From the IMG/VR virus record IMGVR_UViG_2879736954_000010: DNA of 49,784 nt; one strand, given 5' to 3'. Origin of the DNA: a virus. Taxonomy: Duplodnaviria; Heunggongvirae; Uroviricota; Caudoviricetes. The notes under the pieces were generated by a model, which searched no databases, was not told the origin of the DNA, and saw nothing but the letters and a program-made list of their open reading frames with translations. Both the position numbers and the translations under genes were made by a program. Of the stretch, positions 44,007 through 47,209 are shown one piece after another. The first letter of the stretch is position 1. Each line of letters starts with the position of its first letter.

Positions 44007-45638
44007 ATAAACCGTGCTGTGTAACTGCTGTGGATCAAATCTGACCACAACTTTTTTCACTCCGGCATTCATTAATGCCATGTTGTAATAAACGTTTTTC
44101 GCGCCTTTAAGGGAGCCGCCAACTTTAAGCGTAAACTCGCCTTTGCGTGAAACGTTCACCGCCTCGGCAGGCAGTAACAGCATCCGTTTTTGTTCTTCGG
44201 TTGGCTTACGCACAATCGTTCTGGCGTATTCACGCTCGAAAACATCATCAAACGAGAGTTTGCCCCCGCACATTTCTGTTTCACGGCCTGTTCTGGCATT
44301 GAACATCGCCACACCTTCGGCAAAGGTTTTCAGAAACAGCTCTGCATCAACAGCGTGGTCGCCATAGTTATCAGGTTTTGCCTGCGGATTTGGCCCCGTA
44401 TATGCGCCAGCCAGTGCCGGATGCTTATCAACGTATTCCTCAAGCCCACCAACACCGAAAGCACGTTCAACAGGTTTTGCCTGGCCCCAGCCTTTACCGG
44501 CAACAACGCTTGTCCAGTGCATTTTCGCACCCATCAGTAAAAACAGTCCTTTTGGATCGTCCTCTTTTACCTTAAAGCGGTAGCGATTGGGCGCGCCTCC
44601 CGTCAGCCATTTATTCGCAGCACCACGGGTGTTATCAATGGTGATGTGAAAATCCTCCGGGATACTGTAGCGAGTCACAACATCCATGAACGAGAGGCGA
44701 ATTGAATCAATGTTCTCGCTCACATCGCAGCGCCAGCCCAGAATTTTTCGGGTTTTCACATCCTGCCAGAACCATGTTTTCGGACGGATCACATCACCGT
44801 TAAACCAGCGTACAAAGACGTTATGCAGATAACCGTCGCCGTTGATCCACTGCATGGCGTCCAGGTGTTCCACAGTTCGCTGCTGTGCCGGTATCAGATG
44901 CATCAGTGCATGTTCACCTTCACGACAGGCAACAACCATTGCCTCGTCCAGTTGCTGAATCCGGCGAAAGGCCGTGGCACGGGAGGGAATACTCCAGCCA
45001 TGCTCGCGGGCTGCCAGTTCCAGACGCTCATAACATTTGCGGAAGGCGGGTTTTTCCGGTCGCAGATAATCTGCAATCAGAAACTGCCAGGCATCCTCGT
45101 CAAATTCACTTTTGTGAACATTGCGACGGGATGCTCCACGTCCATCAACAAGTGCAGCCGCCCAGTCAGGCTTCGCAAACTTCTGTACCTGGTAATACTT
45201 GTCCCGCAAAGTGGATGCGCTGACCTGGTAATGCCCTGCAACGGTCGCAAAAGCCGTTTTCGTTGAAATCCCCTGGTTCAGCATTTCGTCTGTGGCCTGA
45301 ATTGAGGGCAACCATTTTTCAGCCAGGCTGCGCTGGGAATCGCTGGCTTTATCCCATTTGCTCCATAGTGCCTCACGATCATAATCATGAGCTTCCAGCG
45401 TGGGGCGGGCGATTTCAAAACATCCCTGACTGGTTTTAAATTTTCCTTGTTGGAGCAAAACTTCAGCTCGAGCAATGTTAGGAAGAGAAGATATATGGTA
45501 TTCGTAAGCAACCCCTCTAATTCCTTCTCTTCTTCTCTTGAGCCATCCTTCTCTCTGAGCTCTTTTGTGAACCCCCATTAATGAACCAGGTAAACCAGAT
45601 AAACCCATGCATTCAATTGCTGATATCCACTCTCTCAT
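44007..45638 (-). pseudogene. A: Mu/D108-like transposase A, truncated after codon 544 by IS600
   Basis: Residues ~80-544 are near-identical to MuA as I recall it (...[36 protein letters not shown]...[16 protein letters not shown]); the N-terminal ~80 aa differ from Mu (D108-like operator-binding domain); stop codon supplied by the IS600 terminus. Confidence 0.9.
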
Positions 45639-45849
45639 TGTGATCCCTTAGATATCTACTAGGCCAAATTTCCTCAGGTTTCATGTTTAAGGCGTCAGCA
45701 ATAATGCGTTCACCTTTAGGCCATGGCCTGACTAATGCATTTGCAAGCGTCCCGGTTGAATAACCTGAACGTCTGGACAATTTTGCCAGAGGGGTTCCTG
45801 TTTTTTTGAGGGCCGCAATCACGTCGGCCCGATGCCAATCGTTACTCAT
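45613..45849 (-). CDS. ner: Ner-like DNA-binding regulator
   Basis: ...[63 protein letters not shown]... parallels Mu Ner. Confidence 0.75.
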
Positions 45850-46020
45850 CTTTCGCACACCAACCATATTGCGTATGATAAAGGGTTACCAAAACAAATA
45901 ATTCGTCTTGATTATCTGTTTTATACATTACCAAATAAACCAAACCGGTTTATATCAGTTAATGTGGTTTATTTTGTAATCCATTGATTTTTATATAGAT
46001 AAATCTGGTAAACTTAGTTT

Positions 46021-46530
46021 ATGAAAAGCGCAAATGAGATAAACCAGTGGATGACACCCAAACAAATTACTGAACTGGATGGAATGCCTGGGACAATACA
46101 GGGGGTGCATAAACGAGCAAAGAAAGAAGGATGGCCGAAGCGTTCACAAGAAGGGCGTCGCGGGCCTGGGGTTGAATATATCCCGGCAATACCGGCTATG
46201 CAAAAAATTGCTATCGAAGAAATGAATGCTGATACATTGAAAATGTTCTCCCTGTTAATCAATAAACTAGGAGAAAATGAAGTCCGAGAGATAGAGCTAA
46301 ACATGGCTAAATATGGGCTTTCCGGATTAATGCAAGAACGCCCCTCCATCTCCGTTGACACCCTATTGGCAACGCTGGGTATTGATCGCCAAACACTACA
46401 AACAGCTTTGGCGCTGCATAAATTACCTCCAGAAACTCGCCAAGAGATTTTGTCAATGTATGGTGTTCATAAACAGGAAGAGCCTGTAGCTCCTTTGTTG
46501 GAACCACAAGATGCGAAAAAAGCCGTATAA
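46021..46530 (+). CDS. c: Mu-type c repressor (169 aa)
   Basis: C-terminal ...LPPETRQEILSMYGVHKQEEPVAPLLEPQDAKKAV parallels Mu repressor; transcribed toward the Mu left end. Confidence 0.75.
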   Translation: MKSANEINQWMTPKQITELDGMPGTIQGVHKRAKKEGWPKRSQEGRRGPGVEYIPAIPAMQKIAIEEMNADTLKMFSLLINKLGENEVREIELNMAKYGLSGLMQERPSISVDTLLATLGIDRQTLQTALALHKLPPETRQEILSMYGVHKQEEPVAPLLEPQDAKKAV

Positions 46531-46867
46531 CAACCATGAGCCAGCTAAAACATACTTCACCTCACATAATCACACATGTAACATACCTAAACGGCATGAG
46601 CTGATTTGTGATATGAGTCATTTGATGACAGCCTGGTTGTTATCGGTTTTGAACGTTTTTTGAAGCTATGATTGAAATGATTTATAGTGTTTTTGTTTTT
46701 CGTTTTTTCAATGAAACAAAAGCAATTTTTTACTATCTTTCGCGTTTCATTGGTTAACGCCTAAAATTTGTACTACAGGCTTGCAAGCCCCACCAAATCT
46801 AATCCCATCAGATCCCGAATAATCCAATGTTCTCCCGGTTTTTTCGTACTTCAAGTGAATCAATACA
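46531..46867 (-). other. Mu/D108-like left end (attL and operator region); terminus at 46867
   Basis: Reverse complement of 46830-46867 reads TGTATTGATTCACTTGAAGTACGAAAAAACCGGGAGA, the canonical Mu left-end sequence. Confidence 0.8.
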
Positions 46868-47209
46868 CTGGGGCAAACGCTAACCCGTTTCCGCCAGCGT
46901 AAACATATGCTGGAAAGTATTGATAGCGCCAGCCAGAAGCAAATTGATGAGATGTTTAATGCCTATGCTCGCGGTGAACCCAAAGACGAACTGCCGACCG
47001 GCATTGACCCCTTGACGCTAAACGCGGTGCGAAAACTGTTTAAAGAGCCTGGTGTGCAACATACGGCAGAAACGGTGGCGCAGGCACTGACCATCAGCCG
47101 CACCACTGCCAGGCGTTATCTTGAATATTGCGCCAGCCGCCATCTGATTATTGCTGAAATTGTTCACGGCAAAGTTGGCAGACCACAACGCATATACCAC
47201 AGTGGGTGA
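46868..47209 (+). pseudogene. dpiA: dpiA (citB) response regulator, 3' fragment only (5' part displaced by Mu-like insertion)
   Basis: C-terminal HTH region ...TISRTTARRYLEYCASRHLIIAEIVHGKVGRPQRIYHSG; convergent with dcuC as in E. coli. Confidence 0.65.

Follow-up and report, generated by a model that had tools for sequence, protein, structure and literature searches.

A Mu-family left end in Shigella flexneri dpiA, bounded by IS600 and carrying a rare heteroimmune module

The stretch of viral DNA considered here (IMG/VR record IMGVR_UViG_2879736954_000010; 49,784 nucleotides (nt), hereafter the window) holds, at positions 44007-46867, the left end of a transposable phage of the Mu family that had entered dpiA of Shigella flexneri; the insertion sequence (IS) IS600 bounds it on the inner side. 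Inward from the phage terminus follow the repressor gene c, ner and the transposase gene A, an order already proposed in a preliminary description made from the sequence alone and borne out by the list of open reading frames (ORFs) and by Pfam. The right attachment site attR, the gene for the B ATPase and the late genes that belong to a complete Mu-family prophage are absent from the window, and the element is a remnant rather than a prophage. From the host gene inward, the features are as follows.

46868-47209, plus strand: 3' fragment of dpiA, codons 114-226 and the stop codon, aligned to dpiA of Escherichia coli IAI1
46868-46872, plus strand: host pentamer CTGGG, read against uninterrupted dpiA
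46531-46867, minus strand: attL with sites L1-L3, 95.9% identical to Mu nt 1-338
46021-46530, plus strand: c repressor, 169 amino acids (aa), intact (ORF list; Pfam HTH_Tnp_Mu_1)
45850-46020, no strand assigned: c-ner operator/promoter region, 171 base pairs (bp), homologous only to the UMNF18 prophage
45613-45849, minus strand: ner, 78 aa (Pfam HTH_35)
44007-45638, minus strand, stop at 44004-44006: truncated transposase A', 544 codons (Pfam; alignment to MuA)
42743-44006, minus strand: IS600, 1,264 bp, matching the annotated IS600 of S. flexneri pCP301 at 99.8% identity

A megablast comparison with 50,697 phage records returned Mu, D108, SfMu and their relatives, in two separate pieces. In local blastn alignments Mu nt 1-447 correspond to 46867-46422 (91.5% identity) and Mu nt 1511-2964 to 45458-44005 (97.8%), which places Mu nt 1 exactly at 46867, where the preliminary description had located the canonical terminus, and Mu nt 2964 at 44005. 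Because the last two nucleotides of this alignment (TG) are shared by chance with the end of IS600, the limit of the Mu-derived DNA is set at 44007, giving a length of 2,861 bp. With the whole Mu genome as query, neither blastn nor tblastx detected further Mu similarity in the window outside 44005-46867, and an Rfam scan of 42000-49784 gave no match.

The outer end is well preserved. The 337 bp beyond c finish in ...GAATCAATACA at 46867, the Mu terminus reading 5'-TGTATTGATTCAC, and contain the three transposase-binding sites L1 (46841-46857), L2 (46737-46753) and L3 (46697-46713). L1 and L2 fit the consensus YMYNWRAARYRCGAAAR, and L3 departs from it by two mismatches, one more than the L3 of Mu itself. 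Over attL the DNA identity is 95.9% to Mu, 78.6% to D108, 74.6% to SfMu and 80.1% to the UMNF18 prophage, and on these figures attL is Mu-like and not D108-like.

On the host side, position 46868 aligns with nt 340 (codon 114) of E. coli IAI1 dpiA, which confirms the earlier assignment of the flanking gene, and the DNA from 46868 to 49784, through dcuC and pagP, is 99.3% identical to IAI1, with dpiA', dcuC and pagP in the same order and on the same strands. The junction reads ...AATCAATACA/CTGGGGCAAACG in the window and ...CTATGAACGG/CTGGGGCAAACG in uninterrupted IAI1 dpiA. Full-length dpiA, a CitB-family response regulator gene, has 226 codons encoding a receiver domain and an HTH_64 output domain; what survives here is 113 codons with the output domain only (Pfam 4e-49), the receiver domain having been lost. 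The preliminary description was right that the 3' part is retained, its figure of about 100 codons being too low, as the 100-aa ORF at 46907-47209 merely begins at an internal methionine of the fragment. Since this internal ATG has no convincing ribosome-binding site, no product is proposed for dpiA', which is an irreversibly inactivated pseudogene fragment; the remnant thus accounts for dpiA being a pseudogene in S. flexneri. The pentamer CTGGG adjoins the Mu end in the host DNA and is present in the window as the left copy only. Mu prefers targets of the consensus C-Y-(G/C)-R-G; CTGGG fits this preference and is the expected copy of a 5-bp target duplication.

At the inner end, the Mu-derived DNA finishes in ...ACGGTTTAT and gives way to TGAGATAGCCTGAG..., the terminus of IS600, whose first three bases form the TGA stop codon of A' (44004-44006). 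Pfam recognises HTH_Tnp_Mu_1, HTH_Tnp_Mu_2, DDE_2 (1e-134) and a Mu-transpos_C domain that breaks off at profile position 50 of 61, and the DDE triad is present as D268, D335 and E391. Because A here has one residue fewer in its N-terminal domain, the cut lies after Y545 in MuA numbering, and A' is left without the last 118 residues, which comprise the end of domain II-beta and the whole of domain III (III-alpha and III-beta). In MuA this stretch is needed for catalysis and for the interactions with MuB and ClpX. Residues from about 61 to 544 are some 98% identical to MuA, and the DNA of this core is 97.8% identical to Mu, 97.2% to D108, 97.9% to SfMu and 96.9% to UMNF18. Over the first 60 residues the identities are 26/60 to Mu, 27/60 to D108, 26/60 to SfMu and 55/60 to UMNF18, so that the divergent N-terminus seen in the preliminary description is real, its boundary lying near residue 60 and not 80. 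A protein search with MuA residues 546-663 for the other half of A returned matches in other prophages, among them the UMNF18-type contigs L022-L024 described below, and one match (P0065) in an unrelated construct; none was preceded by IS600. One of the prophages matched, an independent Mu-like one (L021, positions 1-50; Logan SRR11783474), has an IS10-type end, CTGAGAGATCCCCTCATAATTTCCCC, inserted in A some 20 bp upstream of the corresponding position.

The IS600 copy at 42743-44006, a member of the IS3 family, encodes orfA (43640-43942) and orfB (42786-43604) in the same orientation as A', with the Pfam domains HTH_Tnp_1 and rve. Its boundaries were set with the help of a second copy at 24865-26128, which has the same orientation, lies within a lambdoid prophage between the terminase and lysis genes, and is 99.6% identical, the two differing at 5 nt, including one that gives L60V in orfA. 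Neither copy is flanked by a 3-bp target duplication, the flanks being AAT/ATA for 42743-44006 and GTT/CCC for 24865-26128. On the far side, 37679-42742 holds the portal-to-capsid head module of a non-Mu temperate phage, 95% identical to vB_EcoM-689R2, a phage whose genome encodes a DNA polymerase, a cI/cro-type switch and Q. The missing duplication and the unrelated phage DNA beyond therefore point to an IS600-mediated rearrangement and not to a simple insertion; the preliminary description had A cut at codon 544 by IS600, which stands with this qualification. The remnant marks one breakpoint of an IS600-driven chromosomal rearrangement. At the start of the window lie a complete ybhB (plus strand; PEBP family, 158 aa), then ipaH, then the lambdoid prophage; from the K-12 map we take ybhB to flank att-lambda, about 150 kb from dpiA and in the opposite orientation. 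The segment 1-2823, with a gene for a 587-aa IpaH-type effector (LRR_TTSS and an NEL E3 ligase domain) and the edge of the lambdoid prophage, is an ipaH island at att-lambda.

Between its well-conserved flanks the remnant is of mosaic ancestry. The c protein (Pfam HTH_Tnp_Mu_1, 4.5e-12) is 38.5% identical to that of Mu, 31.9% to D108, 34.0% to SfMu and 84.6% to UMNF18; Ner (HTH_35, 4e-29) is 62.9% identical to that of Mu, 54.5% to D108, 54.5% to SfMu and 98.7% to UMNF18; and the operator DNA has no detectable alignment to Mu, D108 or SfMu and aligns to UMNF18 at 82.8% with a 9-bp indel. These values set the early region apart from the Mu immunity group, in which c, the operators O1-O3 and ner are as in Mu, and equally from the D108/SfMu group, whose two members share 89% identity in c and 98% in ner (PMC4406740). 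Among 5,426 complete E. coli genomes the segment 45470-46420 was found in one (UMNF18, 89.7%), and the 50,697 phage records gave no blastn match to it. The c family is small; besides one S. flexneri cluster it has a few from Salmonella and E. coli, at 85-87%. Judged by these comparisons, the module that runs from c through the operators and ner into A, as far as about residue 60, represents a third Mu-family immunity type and gives the enterobacterial Mu-like phages at least one specificity besides those of Mu and of D108/SfMu.

The inclusion of the transposase N-terminus has a ready explanation. In Mu, the repressor and the N-terminal domain of the transposase are paralogues that read the same operator/enhancer DNA. 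Here c residues 7-62 and A' residues 1-57 are likewise paralogous (42% identity, E 2e-16), and the swapped module therefore reaches into A. The swap covers about 1.4 kb, from most of c to roughly codon 60 of A, between flanks that are 96-98% identical, and is a neat but expected case of modular exchange, the N-terminal domain of the transposase moving together with the repressor and operators.

Within the operator region four 9-mers of the form TTAC[CA]A[AG]A[TA] stand at 45886, 45928, 45971 and 46003, out of six matches to this pattern in the whole window, and a palindrome, AAACCGGTTT, lies at 45942-45951; we infer that the 9-mers and the palindrome are candidate binding sites. A consensus scan for the early (Pe) and repressor (Pc) promoters turned up no convincing promoter on the minus strand; the candidates on the plus strand were weak and no more numerous than in shuffled sequence. 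The c gene is directed outward through attL to dpiA', and no terminator-like site was detected between the two. On the minus strand, the ner ORF spans 78 or 84 aa (45613-45849 or 45613-45867), and the last 26 nt of the gene (45613-45638) overlap the start of A, as they do in the UMNF18 prophage.

Set beside the known systems, the remnant shares with Mu (Muvirus mu, AF083977) the terminus, sites L1-L3, a leftward c, a rightward ner and A, the A core at 97.8% DNA identity, the DDE triad and the paralogy of repressor and transposase N-terminus. It differs from Mu in c, ner, the unalignable operator and the first 60 or so residues of A (about 45% identity), in the 26-nt overlap of ner and A, which in Mu abut without overlapping, and in lacking B, the late genes, attR and the last 118 residues of A, all of which Mu possesses. 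With D108 and SfMu it has in common the architecture, the A core at 97-98% and a module that is heteroimmune relative to Mu, while c (32-34%), ner (54.5%) and attL (75-79%) are unlike theirs. The only close relative of the module is the UMNF18 prophage (NZ_AGTD01000001, at 3.087 Mb), in which the DNA-binding part of c is nearly identical; this, however, is a full prophage that also possesses B, gam, mor and lysis genes, has a D108-like attL and carries a c whose C-terminal tail is unlike that of the remnant.

The structure is fixed in S. flexneri, recurring in every complete genome of the species that was sampled. A protein index lists the exact A' sequence in 945 blocks, and the nine places that were read are all alike, with dacA...pagP-dcuC-dpiA', c, ner, A', IS600 and the capsid module. 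Across 42000-49784 the window differs at 0-7 positions from independent assemblies, among them CP001383 (which we take to be S. flexneri 2002017), LM651928 (presumably S. flexneri NCTC1), CP012137, CP020342 and CP026772, and a scan of a genome collection found the left Mu-dpiA junction also in CP178302 and CP182556. The exact c sequence occurs on at least 1000 contigs, annotated as a repressor or DNA-binding protein of Shigella flexneri. The element is thus already in public data under generic annotation ("putative transposase", "repressor protein / DNA-binding protein", "dpiA"), and a literature search yielded no specific description of the remnant, nor of a cit/dpi deletion in Shigella. In a Southern blot study, "remnants of SfMu" were seen in most S. 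flexneri strains, which were not mapped or sequenced, and a c-ner PCR (polymerase chain reaction) based on SfMu was negative in all strains except the SfMu host (Jakhetia and Verma, 2015; PMC4406740). It is plausible that the remnant is the source of one of the common Southern bands of that study, and a c-ner PCR designed on SfMu would be expected to miss its immunity type. One further record, CP178302.1 (E. coli ECMA0423; L009/L019), shows an oddly uneven pattern, with 64 differences, 19 of them indels, in the 2.9 kb of dpiA'-dcuC-pagP; the neighbouring 2.9 kb of Mu DNA has one difference and the phage genes have none.

The history that, very probably, best explains these observations as a whole is a Mu-family insertion followed by the entry of IS600 and an IS600-mediated loss, which left a transposition-incompetent stump with an intact repressor circuit. 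A phage with Mu-like ends and a Mu-like transposase core, already carrying the heteroimmune c/operator/ner/A-N-terminus module, would have transposed into dpiA of an S. flexneri ancestor at the target CTGGG, at codon 113/114, and IS600 would then have entered A after codon 544. A rearrangement mediated by IS600 would have separated or removed the 3' end of A, B, the late genes and attR, probably by recombination with another IS600 copy and most likely within an inversion that brought the ybhB/att-lambda prophage region beside dpiA. One inversion, between the IS600 in Mu A and an oppositely oriented copy inside the att-lambda prophage, would yield the arrangement observed. Having a single end, no B and a transposase that stops 118 residues short, the stump can neither transpose nor replicate nor be induced. 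Expression of c and ner may persist and keep the early promoter Pe shut, and c, if it acts as its Mu counterpart does, could protect the host from homoimmune Mu-like phages.

Several observations weigh against this history or leave parts of it loose. Neither the right-hand part of Mu nor attR, the other CTGGG copy or the 5' half of dpiA could be located, which leaves deletion as an alternative to inversion. The window contains no DNA of the dpiA 5' half, dpiB or the cit genes, and a protein search with DpiA residues 1-113 found no S. flexneri DpiA N-terminal fragment; its matches were frameshift or IS variants of ordinary E. coli, P0014 being one such frameshift allele. The predicted right junction with the second 5-bp copy, ...GAACGGCTGGG/TGAAGCGGCGCACG, was absent from metagenome contigs, an uninformative result because the control left junction was equally missing there. 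IS600 OrfA has 14,275 indexed blocks; the 10 places viewed were E. coli loci without relevance to the reciprocal junction. In a supplementary table of the M90T paper, taken as a list of pseudogenes, citC, dpiA and dcuC appear and dpiB does not, which suggests that dpiB and the 5' part of dpiA have been deleted. Furthermore, contigs of complete UMNF18-type prophages (L022, L023 and L024, 1-10; labelled E. coli) start at most 2 nt from the codon cut by IS600 (L003, 5999), and the 35 nt upstream of the cut point are identical in both A genes. Breaks of this kind are expected where a genome contains the remnant together with a complete, near-homoimmune UMNF18-type prophage; if these contigs come from S. 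flexneri, such a phage can coexist with the remnant, which would argue against effective immunity.

One alternative is that the stump is a domesticated immunity cassette, with c kept by selection against homoimmune transposable phages and the operator under recurrent selection. In its favour, the repressor circuit of c, ner and the operators has stayed whole although what transposition requires has been lost, and the dominant c allele is found on at least 1000 contigs. In addition, private substitutions at 45933, 45941 and 45948, found in three assemblies (L010, L008 and L007), fall within 16 bp of the operator region, one of them in a TTACCAAAT repeat and another breaking the palindrome, while the same unbiased sample shows no variation in ner, in c or in the 1.6 kb of A'. 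This cluster could reflect selection or a mutational hot spot. However, the sample comprises only about nine genomes, S. flexneri is young and clonal, so that an intact gene of 510 bp needs no selection, the rarity of the type among E. coli genomes and phage records leaves the supposed selective agent scarce, and the contigs described above suggest coexistence with a UMNF18-type prophage. We therefore consider domestication unlikely, and the stronger proposition, that essentially all S. flexneri express the repressor and retain it for immunity against phages, with operator substitutions that record ongoing selection, more doubtful again.

Far less probable is the version given in the preliminary description, which, from an N-terminal domain of A and a ner that depart from Mu as they do in D108, had proposed an early region of D108-like immunity, that is membership of the D108/SfMu group. 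The comparisons contradict it, since c and ner are less similar to D108 and SfMu (31.9-34% and 54.5%) than to Mu, the operator DNA cannot be aligned to theirs, the segment 45470-46420 has no blastn match in phage records that include both, and attL is 95.9% identical to Mu as against 78.6% to D108. That the junctions are assembly artefacts, chimeric joins at a highly repeated IS600 of which both copies in the window lack target duplications, has a practically negligible probability, given that the A'-IS600-capsid and Mu-dpiA joins recur in independently assembled complete genomes (CP001383, LM651928, CP012137, CP020342, CP026772, CP182556 and others).

The element is, then, an ordinary prophage stump, fixed in S. 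flexneri and equipped with a rare heteroimmune module; it formed very probably by insertion, IS600 entry and IS600-mediated loss as outlined above. Its value is mostly one of bookkeeping, which includes its use as a stable marker of the S. flexneri lineage, and the understanding of transposable phages is unchanged by it.

The neighbouring DNA to the left is itself composed of fragments. The region 34285-42742 is a remnant of the vB_EcoM-689R2-like non-Mu phage with terminase, portal, a Mu-F-like head protein and a DUF2184-type capsid protein, its right end cut by IS600 and its terminase gene interrupted at 35714-36987 by an IS3-family element with ORFs of 121 and 301 aa, IS2-like by size. Alone between IS and prophage fragments, at 33578-34090, stands a gene for a 170-aa membrane protein of the VTT/DedA family.

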